Virus record (IMG/VR): IMGVR_UViG_3300042905_002309
Span: 169,278-233,277 of that record
Length of the DNA stretch: 64,000 nucleotides
DNA from: a virus
Lineage: Duplodnaviria > Heunggongvirae > Uroviricota > Caudoviricetes
Strand: one strand, 5' to 3'
In this document: in pieces, positions 25,562 through 54,687 of the stretch
How positions within the stretch are numbered: the first letter of the stretch is position 1
How the letters are laid out: every line of letters starts with the position of its first letter
Notes under the pieces: generated by a model
The model's input: the letters and a program-made list of their open reading frames with translations, nothing else
What the model was told of the DNA's origin: nothing
The model's database searches: none
Translations under genes and position numbers: made by a program

Positions 25562-25834
25562 ATGATAACTGCATACGGTGAAGATATCGCCTTTGCTATG
25601 TGCGGTGGGTGTCCTGTGCCGAAAGTGGCAAGGGATGCCTTCTGTCATATGTATAAAGGTAATGATGCTATGGAATATGGTAATCTATGTTTATTGCGTG
25701 AGATTGAACGTAGACAAAACGGTATATTAAACTTGTCACCATTCCAACCATGTGATAGTGAAGAAGCTAAAGCATCTTTGGAACGTCGAAGAGAACGTAT
25801 TATAGGTAAAGAATGGCAGGAATATTATGGTTAA
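25562..25834 (+). CDS. hypothetical protein
   Basis: ORF track; ATG 25562. Confidence 0.45.
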   Translation: MITAYGEDIAFAMCGGCPVPKVARDAFCHMYKGNDAMEYGNLCLLREIERRQNGILNLSPFQPCDSEEAKASLERRRERIIGKEWQEYYG

Positions 25835-26357
25835 AATAAAATATGTTGAGGGTGATCTTACTGATCCTATTTCACTTGTTAGTGATAATGGAATATTAGT
25901 TAGTACGCTTATTATGCATATAGTGAACGATCAAGGTATGATGGGTTCTGGCGTTGCTAGAGCTTTGTATGAAAAATGGCCTAAAGTTCGTAGTGAATAC
26001 ATTCGATGGTTTAATGAACCGAATACTTTTGATGTTGATACAGCTTTCCGACTAGGTAAGACACAATTTGTGACTGTATCCCCACCATCACTATATGATA
26101 TCGTGGTAGCTAATATGGTAGGTCAACACATGGTTGGTGCTGATGAACATGGTAATCCACCTATCCGCTATGATGCCTTGGATAGTTGTTTAACGCATGT
26201 TAAGAATTATGCAGAAAGATTTGAATTTTCTGTACATATGCCTTATAAAATGGGTGCAGATCGTGCCAGAGGTGATTGGAACAAAATTGTACAGATGGTT
26301 GAAGATATCCTTTGCAAAAATGATATCGCTGTGGTAGTCTATAAGTTGAAAGGTTAA
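25827..26357 (+). CDS. macro-domain-like protein (ADP-ribose / ADP-ribose-1''-phosphate processing)
   Basis: IKYVEGDLTD...HIVNDQGMMGSGVARAL resembles the macro N(A)AN...GGGV signature; 176 aa. Confidence 0.5.
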   Translation: MVKIKYVEGDLTDPISLVSDNGILVSTLIMHIVNDQGMMGSGVARALYEKWPKVRSEYIRWFNEPNTFDVDTAFRLGKTQFVTVSPPSLYDIVVANMVGQHMVGADEHGNPPIRYDALDSCLTHVKNYAERFEFSVHMPYKMGADRARGDWNKIVQMVEDILCKNDIAVVVYKLKG

Positions 26358-26358
26358 T

Positions 26359-26526
26359 ATGAAAATAAAAACGTTATGGATTATCAAAGAGAAGGAATCT
26401 GGTGAACATAGATGGTATACGTTCACAAGACAACAAGCCAGAGATACTATTAAGGATTATAGATACTGGAATGGATTTAGTGCTAAACAATTAGTCGTTA
26501 AGCAAGGAAGGGTATTTGAAGTATGA
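26359..26526 (+). CDS. small ORF (55 aa), not in track
   Basis: Read by eye. Confidence 0.4.
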   Translation: MKIKTLWIIKEKESGEHRWYTFTRQQARDTIKDYRYWNGFSAKQLVVKQGRVFEV

Positions 26527-26924
26527 ATATTGAAAATGCAGAAAAACGTAAGCAAGGTCGCCCAAAAGATAATACATTTCCTACATTTGTTACATGTCGT
26601 GTGACAGGGAAACAAAGTAAAATTAATGTAACACTTTTGCGTAGACAACTCCAAAAGAACGGTAAAACTATTGAAGAGTATTTGTCAAATTATGTGAGCC
26701 GAGAGGGTAAACACATTGAGGAAGATGCCTCAGATACTACACAAGTACTTCCCCCGATCAATCCAGACCTTGGTAAGGCTATTGAAGTAGAGGAACGAGT
26801 ATACGATGAAGATACGTTAGAAAAACGTAAAGTCATTATCAAAGATTTGTGGAATAAAATTGCACAACAGCCTCCTGAATATTATCAGGAACAATTTAAG
26901 ATTATAGGTTATCGTGGAAAATAA
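26523..26924 (+). CDS. protein with N-terminal AT-hook-like KQGRPKD
   Basis: ORF track. Confidence 0.5.
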   Translation: MNIENAEKRKQGRPKDNTFPTFVTCRVTGKQSKINVTLLRRQLQKNGKTIEEYLSNYVSREGKHIEEDASDTTQVLPPINPDLGKAIEVEERVYDEDTLEKRKVIIKDLWNKIAQQPPEYYQEQFKIIGYRGK

Positions 26925-27099
26925 AGTAAGAACCGAACTATTATTACAAACTGCTAACATTAGAACGTTATGCAATGAAGTGTTGGATGATTATAACGAC
27001 AAGAAATTAACACTTGTCGAAATGGATGCCCGTATGGTAGTGTTAAGTAAGAAATTAACCGAGTTGTCAGAAAGACTTGAAAATGAAAAATTCGGATAA
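26914..27099 (+). CDS. hypothetical small protein
   Basis: ORF track. Confidence 0.45.
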   Translation: MENKVRTELLLQTANIRTLCNEVLDDYNDKKLTLVEMDARMVVLSKKLTELSERLENEKFG

Positions 27100-27163
27100 A
27101 GCTATTATTATCATTGTAATCCTTTTACTATTTGGTGTAAAATGTTGCTAATGTGCGTGTTAT

Positions 27164-27436: not shown

Positions 27437-27437
27437 T

Positions 27438-27902: not shown

Positions 27903-27911
27903 GGTATATAT

Positions 27912-28362: not shown

Positions 28363-28871
28363 AAATTGTACGTGACTTTCTAAGAGAGGTTTCGCTTGAA
28401 GAGTTCTGTGATGAAAATGATATTGAAATTATCATCCATGAACGTCCTAATGGTAGAGCGACAGGAAACGGCAACTTGACTCGCTATTATGGTGGATTAC
28501 AGAATAATATTAGTACACTCTGTGAAATTATTCGTCCTTCTATATTGAGTGGTGTTGTGGCTAATGGTAATACTGAGGAAGACGTTTTGAATCAAATAGT
28601 AGAAACTATTAGTGAAGAATCTATAACATTTGAAGCGATGAAAAAAGATCGTAGGATTTATAAGGTTCCTCGCTTAATTTCAGTGTGGACAGTTGATAAG
28701 AAATCAATTGCACCACCTGAAGAAAAAACTCATTATAAACCTTCAATTAGTAAAGAAAAATTTGAGAGAAGTTGTAAAAAGTGTGGATATCTAACTAAGA
28801 ATGTTAGTCACGGATATTATAAATGTCATTGCGGTGAATGTCCCGCTATAACTAAAAAGATACCAAAATGA
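28359..28871 (+). CDS. hypothetical protein with C-terminal Cys cluster
   Basis: ORF track. Confidence 0.55.
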   Translation: MKIVRDFLREVSLEEFCDENDIEIIIHERPNGRATGNGNLTRYYGGLQNNISTLCEIIRPSILSGVVANGNTEEDVLNQIVETISEESITFEAMKKDRRIYKVPRLISVWTVDKKSIAPPEEKTHYKPSISKEKFERSCKKCGYLTKNVSHGYYKCHCGECPAITKKIPK

Positions 28872-29329
28872 AAAAGAAGCCTGAAATGATTATAATGATG
28901 GGCTTACCCGCTTGTGGTAAGAACACTTGGATTAAAAATAACAAGAAGTCTCACGTTGTAGTTGAACTTGATTGGATTCGTAGACATATCTTTGGACATC
29001 AGTATCATAAAGAAGCTGAACCATTTATCATCGGTATGGCGAAAAGTATTACCAGAATGCTTTTATCACAAGGCAAAGATGTGATTATAAATTCAACTGG
29101 TTTGGTGGCACAAATTCGTAATGAGTGGGTGAATATGGCTGATGAATACGAATATACTACCAAAATTGTTTTTATTGACATACCCATTATGAAGTGCTAT
29201 TCTCGTAATAGTAAGCGAGTAGAAGATAAGGTTCCAGAAGAAGTGATTGAACGAATGGGTAACATCTTACAACGACCTAATATCTCTTGTATCGATAAAG
29301 CCGATAAAATTTTGATTGCGGAAGATTAA
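28868..29329 (+). CDS. pnk: polynucleotide 5'-kinase (T4 Pnkp kinase-domain-like, no phosphatase domain)
   Basis: P-loop GLPACGKNTW; VFIDIPIMKCYSRNSKRVEDKVPEEVIERM parallels T4 Pnkp [29 protein letters not shown]. Confidence 0.8.
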   Translation: MKKKPEMIIMMGLPACGKNTWIKNNKKSHVVVELDWIRRHIFGHQYHKEAEPFIIGMAKSITRMLLSQGKDVIINSTGLVAQIRNEWVNMADEYEYTTKIVFIDIPIMKCYSRNSKRVEDKVPEEVIERMGNILQRPNISCIDKADKILIAED

Positions 29330-29331
29330 TT

Positions 29332-30450
29332 ATGAAGAAAATGACTGTTGAAGATTTGCGAAAGACAGGATACATCATCTTTGAATGTATCAGTGGTTCA
29401 CATGCTTATGGAACCAATATTGAAACCTCTGATACCGATATCAGGGGTATCTATATTTTTCCTGAAAGTGAAAAGACTTTATTTGACGATCACCAATTGG
29501 AAGTCGCTGATGATAAACAGGATATCAAGTTTTTTGAACTACAGAAGTTCATGCAACTTTGCGCTGAAAATAATCCCAATGTGTTAGAGCTATTGTTTAC
29601 TCCCGCTGAGTGCATCATTTATAAGGATGCCCGAATGGATGTATTACTTACCAATAATGAATTGTTTGTAAGTCAGAAGTCTTACCATAGTTTTAATGGA
29701 TACGCTTATGCACAGATTCAAAAGGCAAAGGGTAAGAATAAGAAGGTGAATAATCCGAAGCCTGTAGAGCGTCCTGTCAAGGAAGATTACTGCTTTGTAA
29801 TTCCAGAGGGAAGGATATACAATCTTCCACCTGCTAGACCTATTAAACTTACTGAAATTACTAGTACTTATGGTGGCAGTACCGAAGTAGTTCCTTTTGA
29901 TTTGAGTAAATTTAATTGTGCTAGACTTGAACAAACTGCACATATCTATAGACTTTATTACTACGGTGATGAAGCTAAAGGTGTGTTTCGTGGTGATGAA
30001 AATCTTGTGCCAGAGTCTATCCCATTGGAAGACGAAGTTACTAAGTTTTATGGCTTACTCATTTGGAATGAAGATGCCTATAAGCGTGATGTAGCTGAAT
30101 GGAAGTCTTATTGGGAGTGGAAGAATAATCGTAATGATGCACGTTGGGTGGATCAGGAAAAGGGATTGCTTGACTACGATCAAAAGAATATGATGCATTG
30201 CATGAGACTAATGTTAAGTGGAAAGAACATCTTGACAAATGGTGTGCCACTTGTTCGATTTGATGGTGAACAGTTGCAGTATCTACGTGACATTCGTGCA
30301 GGTAAGTTTGAATATAATTTTATTATGAACGCTGTTGAAGAAAAGATGAAGGAATTGGAAGTATTAAAGGATACTACTAAGCTTCGATATGCTGTTGATA
30401 ATTACGCAATTAGCGAGATTTACAAAAAGTTGATTTATTACACACTTTAA
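29332..30450 (+). CDS. minimal nucleotidyltransferase (Pol-beta superfamily, GS-x9-13-DxD); RNA-repair-associated NTase candidate
   Basis: ISGSHAYGTNIETSDTDIRG. Confidence 0.55.
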   Translation: MKKMTVEDLRKTGYIIFECISGSHAYGTNIETSDTDIRGIYIFPESEKTLFDDHQLEVADDKQDIKFFELQKFMQLCAENNPNVLELLFTPAECIIYKDARMDVLLTNNELFVSQKSYHSFNGYAYAQIQKAKGKNKKVNNPKPVERPVKEDYCFVIPEGRIYNLPPARPIKLTEITSTYGGSTEVVPFDLSKFNCARLEQTAHIYRLYYYGDEAKGVFRGDENLVPESIPLEDEVTKFYGLLIWNEDAYKRDVAEWKSYWEWKNNRNDARWVDQEKGLLDYDQKNMMHCMRLMLSGKNILTNGVPLVRFDGEQLQYLRDIRAGKFEYNFIMNAVEEKMKELEVLKDTTKLRYAVDNYAISEIYKKLIYYTL

Positions 30451-34847: not shown

Positions 34848-36038
34848 ATGAAAGAGATTAAAGGACAATTTAATACTGCGAAGGTGTTTGCATCAACAGT
34901 CGAACCTTCTTGTGAAGCACAAATTTTAGAGTTATGTAATGAAGAATGGGTATATAACTCTAAAATACGCATTATGGCAGACTGTCATTCTGGTAAGGGA
35001 TGTGTTATTGGTACTACTATGACAATTATTGATAAAATTGTTCCTAATTTAACCGGGGTTGATATCGGATGTGGGGTTCTTGTGACTAAATTTGATACGC
35101 TTTCTTTAACCTTGGAACAGGTTGACTCAATTGTTAAGCGTAACATCCCTATGGGTATGAATTCTCGTCAGTCTATGGTGGTTGACTTTACTCCTGAATT
35201 GGATAAGGCTATCTGTAAGGAAGCTTTTGATCCTCGTCAGGTTTGTAAGTCCATTGGTTCGTTGGGTGGTGGAAACCACTTTATCGAAATTGATAAGGAC
35301 GATGAGGGTAATTTTTATTTAGTCGTACATACGGGTTCTCGTAACTTTGGTAAGCGTGTTGCTGAACATTACCAGAACAAGGCTGTTGATTATCATTCCA
35401 AGAAGGGTTTGAAGTCTACTCAAGAAATCATTAACGAGTTGAAAGCCAAGGGGTTACAACACATGATTCCTGCTGAATTGAAGAAACGTAATGCCGTGGC
35501 TAACGAAGCTTTGACCTATTTGGAAGGTGACTTGTTTGATTGTTACTTAAACGATATGCATATTGCTCAGAAGATGGCAAGTGAGAACCGTAAGGCTATT
35601 GCAGATATCTTGTGCCGTACAATGCATATTAAGCCTACTGAACAATTTGAAACGATTCATAACTACATTGATGTTCATGCTATGATTTTGCGTAAAGGTG
35701 CTATCTCTGCGAAAGCGGGTGAAGTGTGCTTAATTCCTATCAATATGCGTGATGGTTCGTTAATCTGTGTTGGTAAGGGTAACGAAGATTATAACTATTC
35801 TGCGCCTCATGGTGCAGGTCGTTTAATGTCTCGTAAACAGGCGAAGCGTGAATTGTCTTTGGAAGGGTTCAAGGATACGATGAAGGATATTTATTCATCT
35901 ACGGTGGGTGCGTCTACGTTGGACGAAGCACCTGATGCTTACAAGCCTATTGCTGAAATCTTGGAGAACATTCAGGATACGGTTACGGTGTTGAAGCAGA
36001 TCAAGCCTATTTACAATGTGAAAGCGGAAGAGGAATAA
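34848..36038 (+). CDS. rtcB: RtcB RNA 3'-phosphate/2',3'-cyclic-phosphate ligase
   Basis: MADCHSGKGCVIG...GVDIGCG...GGGNHFIEID...HGAGR align with E. coli RtcB MPDVHLGKG...GVDIGCG...GNHFIEI...HGAGR. Confidence 0.95.
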   Translation: MKEIKGQFNTAKVFASTVEPSCEAQILELCNEEWVYNSKIRIMADCHSGKGCVIGTTMTIIDKIVPNLTGVDIGCGVLVTKFDTLSLTLEQVDSIVKRNIPMGMNSRQSMVVDFTPELDKAICKEAFDPRQVCKSIGSLGGGNHFIEIDKDDEGNFYLVVHTGSRNFGKRVAEHYQNKAVDYHSKKGLKSTQEIINELKAKGLQHMIPAELKKRNAVANEALTYLEGDLFDCYLNDMHIAQKMASENRKAIADILCRTMHIKPTEQFETIHNYIDVHAMILRKGAISAKAGEVCLIPINMRDGSLICVGKGNEDYNYSAPHGAGRLMSRKQAKRELSLEGFKDTMKDIYSSTVGASTLDEAPDAYKPIAEILENIQDTVTVLKQIKPIYNVKAEEE

Positions 36039-36394: not shown

Positions 36395-36973
36395 ATGGAC
36401 ATTCGCAAAGTTAGTAAAATATTGTGTTTAAGTTTACGACATAAACCAGAACTTTTGAAATTGAATATGGATTCCGAAGGTTGGGTTGATGTCAATGAAT
36501 TAATCCGCAGATACAATAATTACTATAAGCCTGACACTTACCTTAATAGGAATTTTCTTGATAAGGTGGTTGAAGAGAACAATAAGAAGCGTTTCGCCTA
36601 TAGTGATGATGGTACAAAGATTCGTGCCTCTCAGGGACATTCGATTAATATTAATTTGAATCTTCCTGAGAGTGTTCCAGAAGATATTTTATATCATGGA
36701 ACAGCTAAACGTTTTCTTAATGGTATCATGAAAGAAGGTTTGAAGAAAATGGAGCGTCAACACGTTCATTTATCTGACAATCTTAAAACAGCTTATTCAG
36801 TAGGTTCACGACATGGAGAACCTATTATTCTTATGGTACATGCGGGTGTAATGCATAAGAATGGGTTTAAGTTTTACAAATCCGAGAATGGGGTATGGTT
36901 GACTGATAATGTTCCGAAACAATATCTTGACTTTGCACCAATAATTGCGTATACTACTGGCTACGGTAAATAA
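36395..36973 (+). CDS. kptA: RNA 2'-phosphotransferase Tpt1/KptA
   Basis: SKILCLSLRHKPE...GWVDV...KRFAYSDDGTKIRASQGHS...YHGTAKRFL...HVHLS matches KptA along its whole length. Confidence 0.95.
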   Translation: MDIRKVSKILCLSLRHKPELLKLNMDSEGWVDVNELIRRYNNYYKPDTYLNRNFLDKVVEENNKKRFAYSDDGTKIRASQGHSININLNLPESVPEDILYHGTAKRFLNGIMKEGLKKMERQHVHLSDNLKTAYSVGSRHGEPIILMVHAGVMHKNGFKFYKSENGVWLTDNVPKQYLDFAPIIAYTTGYGK

Positions 36974-37793: not shown

Positions 37794-37832
37794 TTATTGA
37801 CTAATACAATTAAACAATGTAGTCTATTAAAC

Positions 37833-38960
37833 ATGAATAAAACATATCCAATTATTTACAAAAGAACTAAAACGTCAGCAATTCAGACATGGCAGATCAT
37901 AGTCGAGGGTAACACTTATTATACCGTAGATGGTCAAATAGACGGTGTTAAGAGCAAATCTGCGCCTACTGTGTGTAAGGGTAAGAACATTGGCAAGGCT
38001 AATGAGACTTCCGATGAACAACAGGCTATTGCAGAGGCAGAAGCTAAAATTGAAAAGAAGCTTAAAACAGGCTATAGTGAAGATATTGCAAATATCGATA
38101 CCTGTCTAAAGTATTTTGAGCCACAACTTGCTGAAAAGTATATTGAATTTAAGGATAGTGTTGTATTCCCCATCTTGGCAAGTCGTAAGATCGATGGTGC
38201 AAGAATGGTGAATACAGCTACAGCTATTACCACTCGTAAGGGTGAAGATTATCTAAGCTGTCCACATATTCAGAAGGCACTTAAACCCTTCTTTGCCAAG
38301 CATCCTAAAGGTGTGGTTGATGGTGAAATTTATTCACACGGTCAATTCTTTGAGAAGATCATGAGTCTTGTGCGTAAGAAGAAACCAACACAAGCTGAAA
38401 TTGATGAAAGTGAGAAGCTTTGTAAATTGTGGATTTTCGATGGTATTGTAGACGATTCAAAGGAAGGTTTTGCAAAGCGTTTTTCAGACCTTAAACGAGA
38501 ATTGAAGGCTACTATTGATTCTAAAACACTTGAAAAGTATTTTGTGTTTGTAGAGAATGTAGTAATCAACAGTCATGAAGCGTTTGAAGCTGAACATGAT
38601 AAGTATGCGGGTGAAGGATTTGAAGGTGCAATTCTTCGTTATGCCAATGCTCCGTATTACAATAAGCGTAGTAAGTATCTTTTGAAGTATAAGCATTTCA
38701 TTGATGAAGAGTTTGTGATTGTTGATTTTCTTGAAGGTACTGGTTCTGATGCAGGGTTGGCTAGTAAGATCGTAGTCCGTTTGAAAGATGGTTCAACGTC
38801 AGAAGCGGGTATCCGTGGTGATACTGCATACGTCACTCAGTTGTTGAAGGATCGTAAGCATTACATTGGCAAAAAGGCAACAGTTCGTTATCAGAATTTC
38901 ACCAAGTATGGTAAGTTACATTTTGGTGTAGCGGTTAATATTGATCGATTTGATATATGA
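37833..38960 (+). CDS. ATP-dependent polynucleotide ligase (DNA-ligase-type motif I KxDGxR)
   Basis: SRKIDGARM (motif I), EGAILRY (IV), LLKYK (V). Confidence 0.7.
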   Translation: MNKTYPIIYKRTKTSAIQTWQIIVEGNTYYTVDGQIDGVKSKSAPTVCKGKNIGKANETSDEQQAIAEAEAKIEKKLKTGYSEDIANIDTCLKYFEPQLAEKYIEFKDSVVFPILASRKIDGARMVNTATAITTRKGEDYLSCPHIQKALKPFFAKHPKGVVDGEIYSHGQFFEKIMSLVRKKKPTQAEIDESEKLCKLWIFDGIVDDSKEGFAKRFSDLKRELKATIDSKTLEKYFVFVENVVINSHEAFEAEHDKYAGEGFEGAILRYANAPYYNKRSKYLLKYKHFIDEEFVIVDFLEGTGSDAGLASKIVVRLKDGSTSEAGIRGDTAYVTQLLKDRKHYIGKKATVRYQNFTKYGKLHFGVAVNIDRFDI

Positions 38961-40300: not shown

Positions 40301-41041
40301 ATGAAAGAAGTAAAAATAGTAGCAACTAGCGATATACATGGGGAACTTGAATTCAAGATTCCTTCTGGTGATATTTTGACTATTAGTGGTGATATCTGTC
40401 CTGTTAATGGCTCACATAATCCGACTAATCAGATGTATTGGCTTAAAAACCATTTCCTACCTTGGACTGACCAGTTAATTAAGAATAAAGTGGTTAAGCA
40501 TGTTGTCTTTATTGCGGGGAACCATGATTTCGTCTTTAAAAAGGTTACTACTAATACTACAGGTGATTTCTATATGTCGTTACCTGATAATGTACATTTT
40601 CTAAACGATTCTGGCGTTGAACTTGAAGGTGTTAAAATCTATGGTACACCGTGGACACCGACCTTTGGTAATTGGGCGTTTATGACTTGTGAGGAAGCTT
40701 TGGATAATATTTATTCTAAGATTCCAGAAGGTTTGGATATACTTTTATCTCATGGCCCTGCTTATGGTTGGAATGATGTAATCTTAAAAGGCCCGTATAA
40801 AAGTTATTCCAGAGAAGATGAACATATCGGTTCAAAATCTTTGAGAAAACACATACTTAGAGCTAAACCTAAACATTTTTGTTATGGTCACATACATGAG
40901 TGTTCACATACTCCGTTAATTATTCCACATATTAACGAAAATATTGAACGGGTATCAGAAACTACTAGTAATTGTGTTTCTTTGCTTAATGATGATTATG
41001 AGATTGAATATCCAACATATCAATTTAATCTTGTAAAATAG
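40301..41041 (+). CDS. calcineurin-like metallophosphoesterase
   Basis: TSDIHGE, GDICP, GNHDF, SHGPAYG, GHIHE motifs. Confidence 0.75.
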   Translation: MKEVKIVATSDIHGELEFKIPSGDILTISGDICPVNGSHNPTNQMYWLKNHFLPWTDQLIKNKVVKHVVFIAGNHDFVFKKVTTNTTGDFYMSLPDNVHFLNDSGVELEGVKIYGTPWTPTFGNWAFMTCEEALDNIYSKIPEGLDILLSHGPAYGWNDVILKGPYKSYSREDEHIGSKSLRKHILRAKPKHFCYGHIHECSHTPLIIPHINENIERVSETTSNCVSLLNDDYEIEYPTYQFNLVK

Positions 41042-41093: not shown

Positions 41094-41582
41094 ATGAAAG
41101 AAATTAGATACGAAACTAATATACATACATTAAAATTTGATGTACCTAGTATTTTTCTAGCGGGTGTGACTGTTAGAGGAAATCAAACCCACTTGACTTC
41201 ATGGCGTTTTGAAGCTATTGAATTATTCAAGTCTAAAGGATTTGATGGCAATTTAATCATTCCTGAATTTATTGATAAGACTGAATCTGATAAGTATCGC
41301 TATGATTTACCAGTGTGGGAAAATTGTGGACTTTCGAATTCACATGTGATAATGTTTTGGATACCACGAACAAGAGAATTAATTGGACTTACGACTAATT
41401 TTGAAATGGGTTATTGGATGGCTCGACATCGTAGAAAACTTGTCTACGGTAGACCTGATGATTCATTTCGACATAATTATAATGATATCATGTGGGTGGA
41501 AGATGCTCAACGAGTTGGTGCGTCATGTCCAATTTATAACACTTTGGAGAAGACGGTTGATGCCTCTTTAAAACATTTATGA
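41094..41582 (+). CDS. nucleoside 2-deoxyribosyltransferase-like protein, paralog A
   Basis: IFLAG...GFDG...VIMFWIPR...GLTTNFEMGY...YGRPD; paralogous to 57396-57881. Confidence 0.5.
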   Translation: MKEIRYETNIHTLKFDVPSIFLAGVTVRGNQTHLTSWRFEAIELFKSKGFDGNLIIPEFIDKTESDKYRYDLPVWENCGLSNSHVIMFWIPRTRELIGLTTNFEMGYWMARHRRKLVYGRPDDSFRHNYNDIMWVEDAQRVGASCPIYNTLEKTVDASLKHL

Positions 41583-43880: not shown

Positions 43881-44789
43881 ATGAAGAAAGTAGAGAAACC
43901 TACCGAGGATATCGGAATTGTGATAGGGCGTTTTCAGGTGCATGAACTCCATTCTGCACATTTAGATTTAATTCAAAGTGTTTGCAATGAACATGAGAAA
44001 GTTATTATCTTTCTTGGATTAAGTCCTTTAATGGTTACATCAAATAACCCTTTAGACTTTGAATCCCGTAAACAAATGATTTTAGAGAGTTTTCCAAAAG
44101 TTATTGTAATGTATATTAAAGATAATCCATCTGATGAAGTTTGGTCTAAAGATTTAGATGAAAAAATCCGAGATTTAGCAAGTCCTACGCAATCCGTTGT
44201 CCTATACGGAAGTAGAGATTCTTTCATTACACATTATTCTGGTAAGTATCGTACACAAGAATTGATGCAGGAAACTTATATTTCTGGTTCTGAAATTCGT
44301 AAGAATATTTCAAAGAAGGTTAAATCTTCTGCGGATTTCCGAGCAGGGGTGATTTGGGCTTCTGGAAATCGTTTTCCTACCTGTTTTCCTTGTGTTGATA
44401 TCGCTATCTTCAATGAAGATTATAGTAAGATTCTATTAGCTAGGAAGGCTAAAGAAACACTCTACCGCTTTGTAGGAGGCTTCGCAGACCCTAAATCAGA
44501 CTGTTACGAGACTGATGCCCGTAGAGAGGTTCAAGAGGAAACTGGACTCGAAATTGGGGATTTGAAATATCTTGGTAGTACTATTATCAACGATTTTCGT
44601 TACAGACGAGAAATAGATAAAGTCAAAACACTATTTTTTGTTGGAAAAATCTTATTTGGTCGTCCAGAAGCGAATGATGATATCTGTGAAGTCAAATTCT
44701 TTGATATTGACAAGCTAACGGCTACTGATATGATTCCTGAACATAAGCCATTATTTGATATGTTACAAAAATATTTGAAGAAATCTTAA
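43881..44789 (+). CDS. natV: bifunctional NMN adenylyltransferase / Nudix hydrolase (NadM-Nudix, NatV-like)
   Basis: IGRFQVHELHSAH (GRFQPFHxGH-type) N-domain; Nudix box GGFADPKSDCYETDARREVQEETGLE. Confidence 0.85.
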   Translation: MKKVEKPTEDIGIVIGRFQVHELHSAHLDLIQSVCNEHEKVIIFLGLSPLMVTSNNPLDFESRKQMILESFPKVIVMYIKDNPSDEVWSKDLDEKIRDLASPTQSVVLYGSRDSFITHYSGKYRTQELMQETYISGSEIRKNISKKVKSSADFRAGVIWASGNRFPTCFPCVDIAIFNEDYSKILLARKAKETLYRFVGGFADPKSDCYETDARREVQEETGLEIGDLKYLGSTIINDFRYRREIDKVKTLFFVGKILFGRPEANDDICEVKFFDIDKLTATDMIPEHKPLFDMLQKYLKKS

Positions 44790-45035: not shown

Positions 45036-46415
45036 ATGGAAAACAACATTATTACATTGACTGATAGTTATAAATTTACGCATTTTCAACAGTATCCCAA
45101 AGGTACGGAATACATTTACTCATACTTTGAGTCTCGTAATGGAGCCAAGTACAACAAGACTGTGTTTTTCGGTTTGCAATATTACCTTAAAGCATACTTG
45201 CAGGGTACGGTAGTTACTCGTAAGGGTATCGAAAGTGCCGCAAAACTTTGTAAGGCTCACTTTGGTACTGAAAAGAATTTTAATCGTGAGATGTGGGAAT
45301 ACATACTTGAGAAGTATGATGGGAAGCTACCTATCAGCATCAAGGCAGTACCAGAAGGTACTCCTGTATCAGTTTCAAACGTTCTTATGACGGTTGTTAA
45401 TACTGATCCTAAGTGTGCGCCTTTGACGAATCATTTGGAAACATTATTGTCTCAGATTTGGGGAGCTTCGACTGTCGCAAGTCTTTCCTATGAGACATAT
45501 AAATTGATTGAATTTTATCGTGATCGCACAGGAACACGTAATGGAATTAAGTTTGGTTTACATGATTTTGGATTCAGGGGTGTTAGCTCTGTAGAATCTG
45601 CTGGTGTGCTTGGTGCAGGACATTTGCTAAATTTTCTTGGTACTGATACCGTAAAGGCTATGGAAGTGGCAATGGAATACTACAATGCACCACTAGACGG
45701 ATTGGCATATTCAGTCCCGGCTACTGAACATTCGGTCATGACAGCTAGGGGTAAAGAAGGCGAAGAACAAGTTTTTGCTGAATTACTTGGTACATATCCA
45801 GAAGGTATCTTGAGTGTGGTTATCGATTCTTACGACTATAAGAACTTTGTAAATGTAATTGTTCGTAAGTATAAGGATGTGATTCTTGCTCGTAATGGTA
45901 AGCTTGTTTTACGCCCAGATTCGGGCGATCCCACATCTGTAACAATTGATGTGTTTAATATGGTTGCGGATATCTTTGGAACAACTAAAAATGACAAAGG
46001 TTATAAGGAATTACACCCAAAACTTGGTGTTCTATGGGGTGACGGTATTGATTATGCGGGTATCCGTAGCATCTTATTCAGTTTGAGTAATAATATGTAC
46101 TCTACTGATAGTCAAGTTTTTGGTCAAGGTGGAGGCTTACTACAAAAGATCGACAGGGATTTTCAGCGTTTTGCATTTAAATCTTCTGCACAATGCCGTG
46201 AGGGTGTATGGTACGATATCTTTAAAAATCCTTTGGAAGTTAGTAAGGTTTCCAAGAAAGGTAAGTTGAAACTCATTAAAGATGAAAAGGGTGATTTTCA
46301 TACTGTTGGATTAAGTGATCCTCGTCCTGACGAATTAGTTGAAGTGTTTCGTGATGGTGAAATCCTTAAAGAATATACCTTTGACGAAGTTCGTAAGAAT
46401 GTTGGAACTTGGTGA
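45036..46415 (+). CDS. nadV: nicotinamide phosphoribosyltransferase (NadV/NAMPT)
   Basis: TDSYKFTHFQQYP...YSYFESR...FFGLQYYLK matches NAMPT (DSYKVTHYKQYP...YSYFECR...FYGLQYIL). Confidence 0.95.
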   Translation: MENNIITLTDSYKFTHFQQYPKGTEYIYSYFESRNGAKYNKTVFFGLQYYLKAYLQGTVVTRKGIESAAKLCKAHFGTEKNFNREMWEYILEKYDGKLPISIKAVPEGTPVSVSNVLMTVVNTDPKCAPLTNHLETLLSQIWGASTVASLSYETYKLIEFYRDRTGTRNGIKFGLHDFGFRGVSSVESAGVLGAGHLLNFLGTDTVKAMEVAMEYYNAPLDGLAYSVPATEHSVMTARGKEGEEQVFAELLGTYPEGILSVVIDSYDYKNFVNVIVRKYKDVILARNGKLVLRPDSGDPTSVTIDVFNMVADIFGTTKNDKGYKELHPKLGVLWGDGIDYAGIRSILFSLSNNMYSTDSQVFGQGGGLLQKIDRDFQRFAFKSSAQCREGVWYDIFKNPLEVSKVSKKGKLKLIKDEKGDFHTVGLSDPRPDELVEVFRDGEILKEYTFDEVRKNVGTW

Positions 46416-48555: not shown

Positions 48556-48833
48556 AAACTTGGGAAACACGTTTGAAAGAAGCGGTTCAAAATAAACGCT
48601 TTACCAAAGAAGATGTCAAAGAAGCGCAATTGTGGACTACTGATCCTATCTCCGAAATTAAAGATAAGATAGAACTTAAAAACAATGACATTAAATTTGG
48701 CCCGAAAGATATCTACCTAATCTTAGATGGAATCTTCTTTACCAAAGGTGTCGAAGAGAATGATGTAGCGTTAGCAGAGGCTTGTTACAAGGGAATTCAT
48801 AAAAGAGTTGAAAAACTTTACAAAACAGTTTGA
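48552..48833 (+). CDS. hypothetical protein
   Basis: ORF track. Confidence 0.45.
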   Translation: MKTWETRLKEAVQNKRFTKEDVKEAQLWTTDPISEIKDKIELKNNDIKFGPKDIYLILDGIFFTKGVEENDVALAEACYKGIHKRVEKLYKTV

Positions 48834-48865
48834 CATTTAATAACGAAAAGGGTAATCTATTACAC

Positions 48866-49927: not shown

Positions 49928-49935
49928 GGAGTAGT

Positions 49936-50280
49936 ATGAAAATTCGAAGTGGATTTGTAAGTAATAGTTCAAGTAGTTCATTCATCGTACAGGCATGTGA
50001 TGTAGAACGTGCTAAAAGTATGGGTTTAACACTCATTTCAGTTAAAACTCTTAAAGAGTATAATAAAAAGCTTACAGAACTTGAAAACTCTAAAGCTGAG
50101 ATTATGAAGGATGTGCCTAGTTTTCTTGGTGGTGGATATAATTATTATGGATCACAAATTGATATCTTAGGTATTGATAATTTGGATGATGCAGATTTCA
50201 TTTCGGAGCCGTATGACCGTGATGAGGCGTATAGAAGTGGTATGGATGATTATTTTAGCACATTTTTGAGTGACTTGTAA
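49936..50280 (+). CDS. tandem paralog 1 sharing N-terminus MKIRSGFVSNSSSSSFIV with the next four genes
   Basis: ORF track; strong RBS aggagtagt. Confidence 0.7.
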   Translation: MKIRSGFVSNSSSSSFIVQACDVERAKSMGLTLISVKTLKEYNKKLTELENSKAEIMKDVPSFLGGGYNYYGSQIDILGIDNLDDADFISEPYDRDEAYRSGMDDYFSTFLSDL

Positions 50281-50288
50281 GGAGATTT

Positions 50289-51098
50289 ATGAAAATTAGA
50301 AACGGATTTGTGAGTAACAGTAGTTCTAGTAGCTTTGTGGTAGTATTACCTAAAAAGCCTGAATACTGTCAACAAGTTTATGAAATGTTATTCAATAGTA
50401 AGAAAGAGATAATCAAAGAAGAGTATTTAGGTGAATTGGATACTCATCAAATTTCAGAACTCGTATATAGGGATTTAGTCAATACTAAATTCAAGAGAGC
50501 TACGGTTCAAGAGGTTGCTGACTTATTTTCTGCACGTTATCATTATTGGATCAACGCTAATAGTCTCATGATGGATAATAAGGTCGTTGATAAAGACGGT
50601 GGAACCTTTTACTGTGCATCCAATAATTTTTGGGGTACTGATAAGAAGTTATTAGAATTATACAAACAATCCGTTATCAAATGTGACAAAAACTCCAAAA
50701 TGATTCAGAAACGTGCTAACGAAGTTGAAAAGAATGCACCGAATCGTGTTGAATATGCTTATAAAGACGGAAAGAATTATAAGGACGTACCTTATACTGA
50801 TACCCAAATTAAAGCCTATAAGAAATACGAAAAAGAACTTGACTTTTATCAGAAAAATGATAAAGTTTACAAAGATTTTATCAAATGGAGAGATAAGATT
50901 CATAGGTCTGATTGGGACTTGGAGCATAAATATCGCCATGCGTTAGCTAAAGTAGATGCCAAAGCATTTTTGAAGGCGTACAAGGGTAAGTTTGTATTCA
51001 CTACATCTTATTCAGATAATGATGGTTCAATTGGAGCCTTGATGGAGCATGGAAATATTTTTAGAAATGTCGAGCATGAGCGTATTAGTATGCATTAA
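50289..51098 (+). CDS. tandem paralog 2 (MKIRNGFVSNSSSSSFVV..., 269 aa K/D-rich body)
   Basis: ORF track; RBS aaggagattt. Confidence 0.7.
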   Translation: MKIRNGFVSNSSSSSFVVVLPKKPEYCQQVYEMLFNSKKEIIKEEYLGELDTHQISELVYRDLVNTKFKRATVQEVADLFSARYHYWINANSLMMDNKVVDKDGGTFYCASNNFWGTDKKLLELYKQSVIKCDKNSKMIQKRANEVEKNAPNRVEYAYKDGKNYKDVPYTDTQIKAYKKYEKELDFYQKNDKVYKDFIKWRDKIHRSDWDLEHKYRHALAKVDAKAFLKAYKGKFVFTTSYSDNDGSIGALMEHGNIFRNVEHERISMH

Positions 51099-51109
51099 GA
51101 AAGGAAATT

Positions 51110-51409
51110 ATGAAAATTAGACAAGGATTTGTAAGTAACAGTTCTAGCAGTTCGTTCTGCATCTATGGTGCGTACCTTGGTGAAGATCGTGATGAAGCAG
51201 AAGCTATTGAAGCGAAGATTGGTGAACTTGGATTAAAATTAGAGGTTCATTATGGGGAGTATACTCGATGTGTTGGACGCTCATGGTGTTCTATCGGAAA
51301 TGATGAAACTGGTAAAGCATTCAAGGATGGTATTGATGAAGCTGTAACGAAACTTGGTCTTGATGCCAAAAAGACCACTACAATCGAAGAGTCTTGGTAT
51401 AACGGTTAA
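51110..51409 (+). CDS. tandem paralog 3 (MKIRQGFVSNSSSSSFCI...)
   Basis: ORF track; RBS gaaaggaaatt. Confidence 0.7.
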   Translation: MKIRQGFVSNSSSSSFCIYGAYLGEDRDEAEAIEAKIGELGLKLEVHYGEYTRCVGRSWCSIGNDETGKAFKDGIDEAVTKLGLDAKKTTTIEESWYNG

Positions 51410-51418
51410 GGAGAAATT

Positions 51419-51796
51419 ATGAAAATTAGAAACGGATTTGTGAGTAATAGTAGTTCAAGTAGTTTTTGTATCTTTGGTGTCGAGTTGACCGAAAAGGAAT
51501 ACAAAGCACTTATAGCAAAAGAAATTGCTGCAATGAAAGAAGAAGAGGGTGAAGATTTTGATGAAGAAAGTTGCGATATCCAAGATATGCTTTCAGAATG
51601 CGCCTATATTAAAAAGAATAAGTTAGATATAGTATCAACGTCCTTGGATGGTGTCAGTCTTTGTATTGGATTAGATTTATCAGATTCTTCATTAAAAGGT
51701 GAAAAACTTATTATTGAACTTACCAGAATTCATAATATTTTAAATCGTGATTATTCCCATGAGGTAGAAATCTTTTCGGGTGAGACTTATAATTAA
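51419..51796 (+). CDS. tandem paralog 4 (MKIRNGFVSNSSSSSFCI...)
   Basis: ORF track; RBS aaggagaaatt. Confidence 0.7.
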   Translation: MKIRNGFVSNSSSSSFCIFGVELTEKEYKALIAKEIAAMKEEEGEDFDEESCDIQDMLSECAYIKKNKLDIVSTSLDGVSLCIGLDLSDSSLKGEKLIIELTRIHNILNRDYSHEVEIFSGETYN

Positions 51797-51805
51797 GGAA
51801 TAAAT

Positions 51806-52138
51806 ATGAAAATTAGAAACGGTTTTGTAAGTAATAGTAGCAGTTCTTCATTTATTTGTTCAGTCTGTGGTGAATCTGAAACATATTATGATGGGCTTGA
51901 AGAAGCGGGTGCAATACAGTGTGAAGGTCAATGGCATATTTTCCACGAGGATTGTGTCAAGAAATTTGATCTTGAATTTACGGAAGACCGTAATTATGGT
52001 AAATGTGTGACAAGAGCTAGTTGTCCTATTTGTAATCTTTCGGTTCTTCCAGACAGTGACGAGTTGACATTCTTACGTGAAAAGTATAAGATGTCTAAAG
52101 ATGAGATTCTAACAGAGTTACGTAAAACGAAAGGTTAA
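51806..52138 (+). CDS. tandem paralog 5 (MKIRNGFVSNSSSSSFIC...; Cys-rich zinc-finger-like body)
   Basis: ORF track; RBS taaggaataaat. Confidence 0.7.
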   Translation: MKIRNGFVSNSSSSSFICSVCGESETYYDGLEEAGAIQCEGQWHIFHEDCVKKFDLEFTEDRNYGKCVTRASCPICNLSVLPDSDELTFLREKYKMSKDEILTELRKTKG

Positions 52139-52139
52139 T

Positions 52140-52484
52140 ATGAGTTTTGTACTAATCAGTTGGGTATTATTTCTACATTTTGTATTTGACTTTATGTGTC
52201 AAACCGACAAGATGGCAATTAATAAGAGTAAGTCGTTTAAATGGCTTTTTACACATACCAGTGTATACAGTCTTATGGCTTTTCTCGTGGGATTACCTTT
52301 TCCATTAGCTATAGGATTCTACTTATACCTCTTTGTTACTCATAGTATCATTGATGGTATCACCTCACGTATAACTTCATACTTGTGGGTGAAAGAACAG
52401 CGTCATTGGTTCTTTGTAACGATTGGATTTGACCAGTGGTTGCATTATGTGACAATCTTCTGGTTCTTGAGTAAAGTCATATGA
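52140..52484 (+). CDS. multi-pass membrane protein (about 4 TM)
   Basis: ORF track; hydrophobic. Confidence 0.5.
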   Translation: MSFVLISWVLFLHFVFDFMCQTDKMAINKSKSFKWLFTHTSVYSLMAFLVGLPFPLAIGFYLYLFVTHSIIDGITSRITSYLWVKEQRHWFFVTIGFDQWLHYVTIFWFLSKVI

Positions 52485-53029
52485 ATAAAGTTGATGTAAA
52501 AAATTATATCGATCCATCTTGGGATGTTTCTGATATTGTAGTGGAAGCATCTCAAGAGTTGGTTGATAAATGGTTGCCTATGATGAATTATAGTTCTGAT
52601 TCGTGGAGAAACTTTCATTTTACTGAACAAGATATTACATCACATAGAGATGAAACCAAATATTATGGTAACAAATATAAATTACCATCTGTAGATTTAA
52701 AAGATAGATTAGAAGTTTCAAAAAATCTAGAATTTTTGGAGTTGGTATATAAAGCTAATTATAAAGAATGTGGATTCACCTATAAAGTCCGATGGGCAGT
52801 GATGAATTATAGGGGAGATTGTACTAAACGACTACATACTGATGCAGAAGCGTATAAATTGAATGTTAAAGAAACCATAGACTTAATTAATTATAATAAA
52901 AATTCGATCAACATAATATCTTCTGATATAGAGTACAAACAACGTGAATTGTTGCACACACAAGACGCATTAAAAAGATTTGAAGAAGCGTTAATTAGAT
53001 TAAAAGAACAAGAAAAGGATTATGAATGA
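52481..53029 (+). CDS. hypothetical protein
   Basis: ORF track. Confidence 0.5.
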   Translation: MNKVDVKNYIDPSWDVSDIVVEASQELVDKWLPMMNYSSDSWRNFHFTEQDITSHRDETKYYGNKYKLPSVDLKDRLEVSKNLEFLELVYKANYKECGFTYKVRWAVMNYRGDCTKRLHTDAEAYKLNVKETIDLINYNKNSINIISSDIEYKQRELLHTQDALKRFEEALIRLKEQEKDYE

Positions 53030-53562
53030 GTAAAACAATTGTAGTAAATTTATTTGCAGGTCCGGGAACTGGTAAATCAACCACTATGGCAGGTGTGTTC
53101 AGTGAGTTGAAATTGCGTGGCATTAACTGTGAAATGGCTCCTGAATTTGCCAAGGAAAAGGTTTGGGAAGGCTCATTAGGCATCCTTGAGAACCAGATTT
53201 ATATCTTTGGTAAGCAGTTACACGCTATTCATCGACTATTGGGAAAGGTTGATGTGATTATTACAGATTCACCCTTGCTATTATCATTGGTTTATGGTAA
53301 ACATGAAACTGAAACTTTTAAGAAGTTTGTATTAGAGGTGTTTCATAGACAGAATAATGTCAACTATTTCTTGGAACGTAAAAAGGCTTACAATCCTTCT
53401 GGGCGATTACAGACAGAGGAACAAGCGAAGGGTATTGATCGTACTGTATATGATCTTTTAATGGCAAATGATGTACCATTCTTTAAGATTCCAAGTTGTA
53501 AAGATTCTTTTAGTGTGATTGCTAACGATGTAGAAGAAATGATGAAGGTTCGACATGGATAA
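53026..53562 (+). CDS. P-loop NTPase/kinase (AAA_28/NadR-kinase-like?)
   Basis: Walker A FAGPGTGKSTT; small size; sits near the NAD and nucleotide-metabolism genes. Confidence 0.5.
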   Translation: MSKTIVVNLFAGPGTGKSTTMAGVFSELKLRGINCEMAPEFAKEKVWEGSLGILENQIYIFGKQLHAIHRLLGKVDVIITDSPLLLSLVYGKHETETFKKFVLEVFHRQNNVNYFLERKKAYNPSGRLQTEEQAKGIDRTVYDLLMANDVPFFKIPSCKDSFSVIANDVEEMMKVRHG

Positions 53563-54166
53563 TGATATAAATGTTATGAAAATCAAGCTTTTACACCCTG
53601 ACGCAAAATGTCCAGTACAGGCGCATCCAAATTCAGACGCAGGTTATGATGTGTTTGCTATCGATGATGGTGTAGAAAAAATAGAGATTAGAAGGGAATA
53701 TATAGCTGATAATCCAGTCGCCAACGTAAGAGAAATTTTCATATACAGAGAGTATCGTACTGGATTGGCTATAGAATTACCTATTGGTTATCATTGTGAA
53801 TTATTTCCACGTTCATCTATTACTAAAATGGATTTAATGTTGAAAAATTCCATTGGATTAATTGATAATGAATATCGTGGTGAATTGATATTCAGGTTTC
53901 ACCAGTTTCCAATGGTAAATGGTACAAATTCTGTTTACAAAAAGGGTGATAGGATTGGTCAAATTGTCTTGAGAAAGACTATCCATATGCCTATAATGGT
54001 TGTCGATGAATTAAGCGATACGAGTCGTGGTACAGGTGGATTTGGTAGTAGTACAGGTGAATTCCATATCGTGGCAGGTGCTACAAACGTGGGTAAAAGT
54101 TGTTTTAAAAGTGAAGAAGTGAATCCGATTTATAAATCAATTGGTGTAGATACAAGGATGATATAA
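53555..54166 (+). CDS. dut: dUTP diphosphatase (dUTPase) with ~40-aa C-terminal extension
   Basis: AGYDVFA, RSSITK...GLIDNEYRGEL, GDRIGQIVL, RGTGGFGSSTG motifs. Confidence 0.85.
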   Translation: MDNDINVMKIKLLHPDAKCPVQAHPNSDAGYDVFAIDDGVEKIEIRREYIADNPVANVREIFIYREYRTGLAIELPIGYHCELFPRSSITKMDLMLKNSIGLIDNEYRGELIFRFHQFPMVNGTNSVYKKGDRIGQIVLRKTIHMPIMVVDELSDTSRGTGGFGSSTGEFHIVAGATNVGKSCFKSEEVNPIYKSIGVDTRMI

Positions 54167-54168
54167 TT

Positions 54169-54687
54169 ATGAAATACAAAAGTGAATTATTAGGTGCAAC
54201 AGTTTATCCTGAATTAGATGTAATATTCTTCTACGGGGGAATCTTCTCACAATGGGCAGAATGTAAGTTCCATTGTACAGCATTAAACCTTGAAGTGAAT
54301 TGTGCTGAACAAGCGATGATGCTTCATAAGGCAAAATTCTTTAAAGATCAGGAAATCTATGATGCCATTCTTGCAACAGATCATCCTAGAGATCAAAAGG
54401 CTTTAGGTCGTATGGTTAAGAATTTTGATCCTATGGCATGGGAAACGGTTGCATTTAATTATGTCAAAGATATCAATGTTGATAAATTTGGTCAAAATAA
54501 GGGATGGAAAGAATTGTTATTCTTGACTGATCCTTACCATTTGGTCGAAGCTTCTCCTACAGATAGAATTTGGGGTATTGGTATGGGTGAAGATAATCCA
54601 GATATTTTGAATGATACGAAATGGGGTAGAAACCTATTAGGTGAAGCTATTGTACAGGCTAGAGTAGAATTGATGTTTCCATCCTAA
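54169..54687 (+). CDS. NADAR (YbiA-like, DUF1768) domain protein
   Basis: FFYGGIFSQWAECKF...CAEQAMMLHKAKFF...LATDHPRDQKALGRMVKNFDPMAW...EASPTDRIWGIGMG. Confidence 0.8.
   Translation: MKYKSELLGATVYPELDVIFFYGGIFSQWAECKFHCTALNLEVNCAEQAMMLHKAKFFKDQEIYDAILATDHPRDQKALGRMVKNFDPMAWETVAFNYVKDINVDKFGQNKGWKELLFLTDPYHLVEASPTDRIWGIGMGEDNPDILNDTKWGRNLLGEAIVQARVELMFPS

Follow-up and report, generated by a model that had tools for sequence, protein, structure and literature searches.

A Tpt1 homologue beside RtcB, a variant macrodomain and a NADAR protein in a large uncultured phage: probable separate counter-defence modules rather than a single NAD+-dependent pathway

The closest characterised relatives of the macrodomain and NADAR reported here include those of phage T4, where Tk.4 (AdfM) is required against DarTG2 (bioRxiv 10.1101/2025.11.20.689424) and gp30.3 (AdfN), as well as two unrelated, independently acquired phage NADARs, neutralise DarTG1 (PMC11257639). 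The macrodomain protein SCO6735 removes thymine-linked ADP-ribose (T-ADPr) from single-stranded DNA and rescues cells from DarT (PMC9411070), removes uracil-linked ADP-ribose (U-ADPr) from single-stranded RNA (PMC13036486), and is inactive on 5'-phospho-ADPr (PMC11833690). All NADAR types that have been tested hydrolyse guanine-linked ADP-ribose (G-ADPr) on DNA and RNA (PMC11125620, PMC11833690), including Escherichia coli YbiA in vitro (PMC11125620), and NADARs are inactive on phosphate-linked ADP-ribose (PMC11833690). With reference to large phages, Iyer, Burroughs, Anantharaman and Aravind (2022) placed the KptA, Macro and NADAR genes with early host-manipulation and RNA-repair genes, described RNA repair of jumbo phages in which KptA works with 2H, Macro and perhaps NADAR, found NADAR to be enriched in medium-sized and jumbo phages (>48% of them), and reported that Macro, NADAR and Nudix co-occur above chance (PMC9503650). 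In this study, a 64,000-nucleotide stretch of a Caudoviricetes virus (IMG/VR record IMGVR_UViG_3300042905_002309, positions 169,278 to 233,277), hereafter the window, was investigated for its macrodomain, Tpt1 and NADAR genes and the nicotinamide adenine dinucleotide (NAD+) salvage genes that accompany them. The window represents 64 kb of a phage genome of about 250 kb, and all our statements on gene content cover those 64 kb.

A preliminary description of this DNA had read the three genes, alongside NAD salvage, as a eukaryote-like tRNA-splicing and ADP-ribose clearance pathway, or alternatively as a means of reversing host immunity based on ADP-ribosylation. We observed that all three are open reading frames (ORFs) of the + strand starting where that description had placed them, namely 25827-26357 for the macrodomain (176 aa), 36395-36973 for Tpt1 (192 aa) and 54169-54687 for NADAR (172 aa), and that they are indeed not adjacent, lying about 10 kb and about 18 kb apart. 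The gene identities and the accompanying NAD salvage were upheld, and the reading as one pathway was not. In our judgement, the locus probably holds separate, thematically linked counter-defence modules rather than one pathway: one for RNA repair, one for replenishing NAD+ and one made up of two complementary erasers. The gene identities, the retained active-site residues and the conservation of the gene neighbourhoods are directly supported by the data presented below.

The protein encoded at 36395 is clearly a member of the Tpt1/KptA family of NAD+-dependent RNA 2'-phosphotransferases, and phosphotransferase activity is predicted for it from its sequence. It matches PF01885 with 164.9 bits (cut-off 26; E 2.5e-48) from position 5 to position 176 of the 177-position profile, reaches 231.5 bits with the NCBIfam equivalog NF002014, just below the cut-off of 239, and finds its best solved match in RslTpt1 of Runella slithyformis (PDB 7KW8, E 5.8e-48). 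The alignment showed that the catalytic tetrad is intact, with R15, H16, R77 and R121 corresponding to R16/H17/R64/R119 of RslTpt1 and to R18/H19/R68/R119 of CthTpt1. The nearest cellular homologues, at 55-59% identity, come from Bacteroidota, and on this basis a Bacteroidota host is suspected.

The 3'-phosphate/5'-OH RNA ligase RtcB (34848..36038, + strand; Pfam RtcB 7e-59, PHROG 1075 5e-129) is separated from Tpt1 by one small ORF. This order is kept in L037 and L038 (Tpt1 identity 94%) and in L034 and L035 (67%), with the position of the small ORF retained in the relatives and its sequence not; here and below, L001-L039 are loci or contigs of relatives or of other viral lineages, and P0001 and P0003 are macrodomain homologues. 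The two genes lie within about 17 kb of RNA-repair genes, a block that includes the macrodomain. Also encoded in this part of the window, all on the + strand, are a DraRnl/Rnl5-type ATP-dependent RNA ligase (Rnl) with an N-terminal OB and a nucleotidyltransferase domain (24177..25310; Pfam PHA02142 OB 1.5e-30 and RNA_ligase 7e-22; NCBIfam TIGR02306 153.4 bits against a cut-off of 151.15; PHROG 968), a P-loop kinase like the kinase domain of Pnkp or PSTK, a probable RNA 5'-kinase (28868..29329; Pfam AAA_33 3e-21, NCBIfam bacter_Pnkp kinase region 1.3e-11), the RNA-ligase-associated Pol-beta nucleotidyltransferase RlaP (29332..30450; Pfam PF10127 4.7e-23), an ATP-dependent DNA ligase (37797..38960; Pfam DNA_ligase_A_M 8e-15, PHROG 114 1e-66), and a calcineurin-like metallophosphoesterase, which is a candidate end-healing phosphatase or cyclic phosphodiesterase (40301..41041; Pfam Metallophos 8e-08) and is conserved in L001 and L037. 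Further downstream, a CCA-adding tRNA nucleotidyltransferase with an HD domain is encoded, assigned to tRNA 3'-end repair (61980..63455, + strand; Pfam PolyA_pol 1e-28, PolyA_pol_RNAbd 1e-15, HD 5e-07).

Comparable neighbourhoods were found elsewhere. On the 16-kb contig behind L004 and L034, the genes for RtcB, Tpt1, Rnl, DNA ligase, RlaP and the macrodomain all lie within about 11 kb; in unrelated viral contigs, Tpt1 and RlaP are 4-8 kb apart (L011, L015 and L016), and Tpt1 overlaps an RNA ligase gene (L013). In L014, likewise an unrelated viral contig, a homologue of the window's AAA_28 kinase (41% identity) overlaps the start of Tpt1 (both within 7448-8525), and Hen1 follows, 1.5 kb from Tpt1. 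The annotated kptA neighbourhoods of phiCD211, Erwinia phage Y3 and Klebsiella phage KpLz-2_45 contain mostly hypothetical proteins. Tpt1 belongs with RtcB and RNA repair, and not with the macrodomain and NADAR.

Some further features of this region were recorded. A free-standing GIY-YIG/NUMOD3 homing endonuclease gene (34113-34808) lies immediately upstream of RtcB, an arrangement kept in the close relatives L037 and L038. In L001 (38-2154), a NUMOD3/GIY-YIG homing endonuclease ORF separates the OB and ligase-domain ORFs into which the DraRnl-type ligase gene, intact in the window, is split. The protein encoded at 39247-40281 joins an N-terminal P-loop domain to a C-terminal GNAT acetyltransferase domain, is 81% conserved within the RNA-repair block of a relative (L004, 11292-12323), and may be a tRNA- or RNA-acetylating enzyme. 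L037 carries at 5900-7324 an overlapping triad of an AAA_33 kinase, a CTP_transf_like nucleotidyltransferase and a nucleoside 2-deoxyribosyltransferase-like (NDT-like) protein, whereas in the window the P-loop/GNAT and metallophosphoesterase genes stand upstream of the NDT-like gene, a case of module swapping in the region.

With regard to the 25827 protein, sequence homology and the structural model place it as a macrodomain of the SCO6735/BT1257 branch in the ALC1/TARG1/DarG-like class. Of the two profile matches anticipated in the preliminary description, that of NADAR was obtained (PF08719, 145 bits) and that of Macro was not, with PF01661 giving only 13.7 bits (E 0.061) against a cut-off of 22, though PDB homology and the model show a macrodomain. 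PF01661 is insensitive to this subclass, as only one of 51 homologues carries a precomputed match. A phmmer search against PDB returned full-length matches to BT1257 (2AFC/2FG1, E 2e-25) and SCO6735 (5E3B, E 2e-21). The macrodomain fold also withstood structure prediction: the AlphaFold2 model, built on 34 homologues, has a mean predicted local distance difference test (pLDDT) score of 92.6 and a predicted template-modelling (pTM) score of 0.89, and Foldseek listed macrodomains, the exceptions being two designed hydrolases ranked 46 and 48; the macrodomains came in the order BT1257 (2AFC, TM score 0.83/0.95), SCO6735, ALC1, Poa1p, TARG1 and DarG. The assignment to the SCO6735 branch is made because the family profile is far stronger to BT1257 (1e-67) and SCO6735 (1e-58) than to the other classes (ALC1 5e-22, TARG1 4e-13, DarG 1.5e-7).

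The residues H24, N27 and the essential Q85 of SCO6735, whose roles are taken from PMC9411070, are kept as H31, N34 and Q100, and the alignments showed these to be invariant across the 34 homologues and T4-type Tk.4. The position of the catalytic lysine of DarG (K80) and TARG1 (K84) is occupied by Gln100, the Asp125 of TARG1 has no Asp counterpart, and the NCBIfam DarG equivalog gives 20 bits where its cut-off is 250. The protein has a variant diphosphate loop, which reads G143-A-D145-R-A-R-G-D-W151 within KMGADRARGDW, and this GADRA form was found in 10 of the 34 aligned sequences, all of them metagenomic, with a similar GSDR loop in another lineage. A 12-residue insertion at positions 16-27 was seen only in this protein and in P0001 (93% identity). 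As regards placement, the macrodomain gene follows Rnl in the window and, behind the split ligase, in L001, and it stands beside RlaP (79% identity to the RlaP of the window) in L004 and L034; on the P0003 contig, it has no RNA ligase or RlaP neighbour. A peptide-pattern search for the macrodomain in IMG/VR returned nothing.

The NADAR protein is assigned from its sequence to the YbiA type, and neither to the Asp type associated with DarT1 nor to the His type of T4, because its last strand (L-V-E127-A-S) carries Glu and because NCBIfam TIGR02464 is matched above its cut-off (126 bits against 73.7). The match to PF08719 has an E-value of 3.2e-42, its 145 bits standing against a cut-off of 35.1. 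The residues for ADP-ribose binding and catalysis are present as E47, K54 and E127; more broadly, E43, K50, K75, R79, W89, E125, D130 and W133 of PnNADAR correspond to E47, K54, K77, R81, W91, E127, D132 and W135, and only the equivalent of R93 is lost, being Ala. Weak matches of NADAR to Peptidase_C16 and to OmpA structures were dismissed as sub-threshold or compositional.

The NADAR gene is coupled to two upstream genes, an AAA_28 P-loop kinase (53026..53562, + strand; Pfam AAA_28 5e-08), which overlaps the next gene by 8 nt, and a dUTPase-like protein (53555..54166, + strand; PHROG 135 1.7e-35), which ends 2 nt before NADAR and of which an identical gene in L039 bears a recorded Pfam dUTPase match. 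No PDB relative and no NCBIfam match were found for the kinase. In closer, T4-like relatives with Gp23, NADAR adjoins ThyX or ThyA, which parallels the dUTPase of the window. The unrelated contigs L020-L022 carry, downstream of NatV, an unbroken run of NAMPT-like, NDT-like, NADAR and Macro genes, and in L032 NadV lies 4 kb from NADAR. The AAA_28 kinase is an indirect link of the Tpt1 and NADAR neighbourhoods, as it is coupled to dUTPase and NADAR in the window (53026-54687) and its homologue overlaps Tpt1 in L014. In addition, a radical-SAM-like gene was noticed downstream of NADAR in two other viral lineages, after a gap of about 0.9 kb in L026-L030 (NADAR at about 8001) and with an overlap in L036 (1267-2597); that of L026-L030 is 22-25% identical to the window protein encoded at 48830.

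The NAD salvage named in the preliminary description was recovered by profile matches. The nicotinamide phosphoribosyltransferase NadV (45036..46415, + strand) matches NAMPT_N (6e-39), NAPRTase (4e-36) and NF006629 (539 bits against a cut-off of 405). The NatV-like gene (43881..44789, + strand) encodes a putative bifunctional nicotinamide mononucleotide (NMN) adenylyltransferase (NMNAT) and Nudix hydrolase, with a PHROG cytidyltransferase match at residues 4-75 and Pfam NUDIX (5e-13) at residues 171-293; the NCBIfam bifunctional NMNAT/Nudix models match it weakly, and the motifs GRFQVHELH and RREVQEETG are present. NadV and NatV are thereby confirmed as a NARP2 pair, their activity being predicted. 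NARP2 is described as converting nicotinamide to NAD+ via NMN (PMC13464706).

In the reading that we favour, where the biochemical activities, the substrates in vivo and the host defences countered are all inferred, the modules would act as follows. The DraRnl-type ligase, the Pnkp-like kinase, RlaP, RtcB, Tpt1, the metallophosphoesterase and the CCA-adding enzyme would mend tRNAs and other RNAs that host anticodon nucleases or toxins have cleaved. Tpt1 would consume NAD+ in taking off a 2'-phosphate, either internal or perhaps at an end, by which repair is blocked or scarred. NadV and NatV would rebuild NAD+ from nicotinamide, countering NAD+-depleting immunity and incidentally supplying Tpt1. 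The SCO6735/AdfM-like macrodomain would erase ADP-ribose from thymine or uracil bases and NADAR would erase it from guanine, possibly cytosine, bases, so that this orphan antitoxin-like pair would undo ADP-ribosylation of phage nucleic acid of the DarT2 and DarT1 types, or similar. For the macrodomain and NADAR, the alternative offered in the preliminary description, reversal of host ADP-ribosylation immunity, is the better supported of its two readings, given the precedents of AdfM, AdfN and the rescue from DarT by SCO6735; Tk.4 and the window macrodomain are homologous over their full length (26.7% identity, E 7e-6).

Nevertheless, several observations weigh against this reading. Ligation by RtcB makes no 2'-phosphate of the kind that Tpt1 removes, and here, as for bacterial Tpt1 generally, we know of no 2'-phosphate-generating enzyme. 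RslTpt1, its closest homologue of solved structure, removes terminal phosphates poorly (PMC6573784). In the macrodomain, the equivalent of SCO6735 G128 is Asp145, that of K34 is Ser41, and those of K89 and K93 are not basic (one lysine position being G104), while an acidic GADEHGN replaces the Lys-rich mobile loop; a G128E change lowers SCO6735 activity (PMC9411070). The altered loop and the lost lysines suggest that DNA may not be the substrate of the macrodomain, and its conserved placement among RNA-repair genes suits a role linked to RNA or to a metabolite no less than one in protecting DNA. NADAR, for its part, matches neither the DarG1 type, which has Asp, an N-terminal extension and a neighbouring darT1 gene, nor the T4 AdfN type, which has His: it has Glu127 and 172 aa without extension, and no ADP-ribosyltransferase (ART) besides Tpt1 was found among the scanned window ORFs. 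Moreover, E. coli YbiA gave no in vivo rescue from DarT1 (PMC11125620).

A variation on the macrodomain's role, which we regard as unlikely, is that the GADRA macrodomains, with their Asp-Arg diphosphate loop and acidic mobile loop, are dedicated RNA-repair enzymes rather than DarG mimics, stripping ADP-ribose from RNA so that the co-encoded ligases can reseal it. Their substrates may then be, for instance, uracil-linked ADPr, the 2'-phospho-ADPr intermediate of Tpt1, or ADPr-capped ends left by host RNA-targeting ARTs. If true, this would constitute a coupled form of RNA repair, in which RNA is de-ADP-ribosylated and ligated, so far undescribed in phages.

The single pathway proposed in the preliminary description amounts to NAD+-dependent RNA repair integrated with clearance of its by-products. 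A cyclic-phosphate end would be opened to a 2'-phosphate and sealed by an RNA ligase; the Appr>p from Tpt1 would be opened to ADP-ribose-1''-phosphate, which a Poa1p-like macrodomain would dephosphorylate; NADAR and the Nudix domain of NatV would process the remaining ADP-ribose; and NadV and NatV would regenerate NAD+. The position of the macrodomain within the RNA-repair block, here and in relatives, beside Rnl (the window, L001) or RlaP (L004/L034), speaks partly in favour of it, as do a Foldseek match to Poa1p (E 5e-10, TM score 0.64, 19% identity), the annotation of macrodomain homologues in databases as phosphatase or ADP-ribose 1''-phosphate phosphatase related, and the metallophosphoesterase and the HD domain of the CCA-adding enzyme, which could supply phosphodiesterase activity; a KptA-2H-Macro(-NADAR) logic has also been proposed for jumbo phages by Aravind's group (PMC9503650). 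However, the match of the family profile to Poa1p is weak and covers only its first 70, N-terminal positions (2e-10 against 3e-58 for SCO6735), and the inactivity of NADARs on phosphate-linked ADP-ribose (PMC11833690) speaks against a part for NADAR in such a route.

Parts of that route were also not found in the window. Our Pfam scan took in nearly all window ORFs of at least 100 aa, and PHROGs were run on ten unannotated ORFs in 26-53 kb. Neither a 2H cyclic phosphodiesterase nor a fungal-type (Trl1-type) ligase was detected in these scans of the 64 kb, and no twin H-x-T/S motif, as would mark a hidden 2H phosphoesterase, occurs in the 29 unannotated ORFs of 25-53 kb. On the evidence of these scans, the yeast-like Trl1-Tpt1-Cpd1-Poa1 route of splicing and clearance is incomplete in the window. 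The ligases that are encoded there, RtcB and a DraRnl-type Rnl, are not known to leave a 2'-phosphate junction.

The distribution of the three families in cultured phages points in the same direction. Tpt1 is rare, found in 98 records, 61 of which are Erwinia phages; the macrodomain class in 572, mainly T-even phages and Rheinheimera; and the NADAR type in 661, mainly Staphylococcus, Listeria and others. The ten commonest organism names do not include Erwinia for either the macrodomain or the NADAR matches, and the T-even phages have the macrodomain, with no Escherichia phage listed among the Tpt1 matches. Judged by these organism counts, most Tpt1-positive cultured phages appear without this macrodomain class and NADAR type, and the largely different sets of organisms argue against an obligate three-enzyme pathway. 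The integrated pathway is one to which we give little credence.

It is similarly doubtful that the targets of the macrodomain and NADAR are not nucleic acids but small immune signals or toxins derived from ADP-ribose, for instance cyclic isomers of ADP-ribose or ADPr-phosphates from host TIR, SIR2 or ART effectors, which the two proteins would degrade as part of an NAD+ economy with NARP2. The grouping of NatV, NAMPT-like, NDT-like, NADAR and Macro genes in L020-L022 and the proximity of NadV to NADAR in L032 are in keeping with such a role, and so is the mobile loop of the macrodomain, which is acidic and not DNA-binding. Yet we found no literature report of a phage Macro or NADAR degrading an immune signal, all tested NADARs and relatives of the SCO6735 class act on base-linked ADP-ribose of nucleic acids (PMC11125620, PMC11833690, PMC13036486), and T4 genetics link both families to DarTG. 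Least likely of all, and in our estimate very improbable, is that NADAR is a YbiA-like metabolic N-glycosidase of reactive riboflavin or nucleotide intermediates, in the service of its nucleotide-metabolism neighbours and unrelated to ADP-ribosylation, since its above-cut-off match to TIGR02464 ("riboflavin biosynthesis intermediates N-glycosidase"), its translational coupling to the kinase and dUTPase, and the ThyX or ThyA neighbours of its relatives are set against the retention of all ADP-ribose-contacting PnNADAR residues except R93, the G-ADPr hydrolysis of YbiA itself (PMC11125620), and the lack of any riboflavin pathway gene seen in the window.

As for its setting, the window comes from a T4-like phage of about 250 kb and forms its early region, devoted to host takeover, with rIIA, tRNA genes, DenV and nucleotide-metabolism genes. 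Its GC content is about 36%, and the + strand carries almost all transcription up to about 54.7 kb. A sigma-70 promoter scan (79, against 74±10 in shuffles) and a terminator scan (10, against 7.8±2.8) showed no excess over shuffled sequence and defined no transcription units. An identical NADAR was found on at least 16 metagenomic contigs, the longest of 249,720 bp, and the source is therefore a recurrent phage of about 250 kb. No close relative is present among 50,697 deposited phage genomes, megablast of window positions 34-40 kb against these records gave no match, and an exact 50-mer of the NADAR gene has none in the GTDB genomes. The 727-aa protein encoded at 14873-17056, which lacks a Pfam match, is by tblastn a homologue of rIIA, giving the region an early, host-interaction character. 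A role for the macrodomain as regulator of a phage Alt/Mod-type ADP-ribosyltransferase was also considered and rejected, as a gene of this kind did not turn up and its 727-aa candidate proved to be this rIIA.

Among the remaining genes, those starting at 31355 and 33160 encode a Band-7 protein and a DUF5662 protein, and those starting at 41814 and 46528 encode DenV and PTH2. The NDT-like gene (41094..41582, + strand) matches PF15891 at 1.7e-06 and 28.7 bits, just below the cut-off of 30, and has a homologue of 55% identity between the NAMPT-like gene and NADAR in L020-L022; a second NDT-like paralogue, at 57396-58351, exceeds the Pfam threshold, and its gene overlaps that of a type I phosphoribosyltransferase. 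The 365-aa protein starting at 48830 has only a SPASM-domain match and a non-canonical cysteine pattern (C68...C86xxC89, without CxxxCxxC). Directly downstream of it are five consecutive paralogues (starts 49936, 50289, 51110, 51419 and 51806; the region spans 48830-52138), which share the N-terminus MKIR[S/N/Q]GFVSNSSSSSF and diverge beyond it; the SPASM protein and these paralogues could be a maturase with its substrate family. Positions 3120-3196, 8451-8511, 12549-12623 and 13172-13254 hold, between them, genes for tRNA-Tyr, tRNA-Lys(UUU) and tRNA-Leu(UAA) and, at 8451, a partial tRNA; the Tyr gene, just after an HNH endonuclease ORF (2595-3098), was called by ARAGORN alone and the partial tRNA by Rfam alone. 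As tRNA-Lys(UUU) is the classic target of the PrrC anticodon nuclease, its presence fits the RNA-repair theme.

The window represents a compact natural example of a large phage stacking NAD+-centred counter-defences. The conserved RtcB-Tpt1 pairing offers a tractable system for asking what bacterial and phage Tpt1 acts on where there is no 2'-phosphate-generating ligase, and the GADRA variant, which swaps the glycine whose mutation cripples SCO6735, may define a different substrate preference in the TARG1/DarG-like class. Compared with known systems, the pattern has already been described for large phages, and AdfN, AdfM and NARP2 give it partial experimental validation; what is specific to this locus, from an uncultured phage lineage, and modestly interesting, is the RtcB-Tpt1 pairing together with the GADRA macrodomain variant.

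SCO6735 and BT1257 (PDB 5E3B and 2FG1/2AFC) are the closest solved structures to the macrodomain, at 34-37% identity and TM scores of up to 0.95, and share with it the catalytic Gln in place of the TARG1/DarG lysine, the PPIRY motif and a long mobile loop, whereas the window protein is phage-encoded and stands amid RNA-repair genes. Tpt1 of Runella slithyformis has an identical catalytic tetrad, and its gene lies within a putative RNA-repair cluster (PMC6097658); unlike it and bacterial KptA, the window Tpt1 is encoded by a phage, directly after RtcB apart from the one small ORF. As in the NadV-NatV (NARP2) system of Vibrio phage KVP40, the window has an NAMPT gene and a bifunctional NMNAT-Nudix gene, here 246 bp apart, but the best match to known phage NadV reaches only 46% identity, and NatV gives only weak matches to the bacterial bifunctional models.

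The jumbo-phage KptA-2H-Macro-NADAR networks have the same domain set, the same enrichment in large myovirus-type genomes and the same early or RNA-repair placement, and the window differs from them in that 2H was not found in it and RtcB is the conserved neighbour of Tpt1. Like the window phage, T4 combines a stand-alone ALC1-like macrodomain (AdfM) and a stand-alone NADAR (AdfN) with no cognate toxin gene, the MGSGVA loop is common to both macrodomains, as are the invariant H, N and Q residues, and in both phages the eraser genes occupy early regions rich in nucleotide-metabolism genes. On the other hand, Tk.4 has the canonical RIGCGIAGG where the window macrodomain has its GADRA loop, Glu127 of the window NADAR stands in place of the His at the last-strand catalytic position of T4 AdfN-type NADARs (PMC11125620), and T4 is without the Tpt1, RtcB and NARP2 that the window phage possesses.

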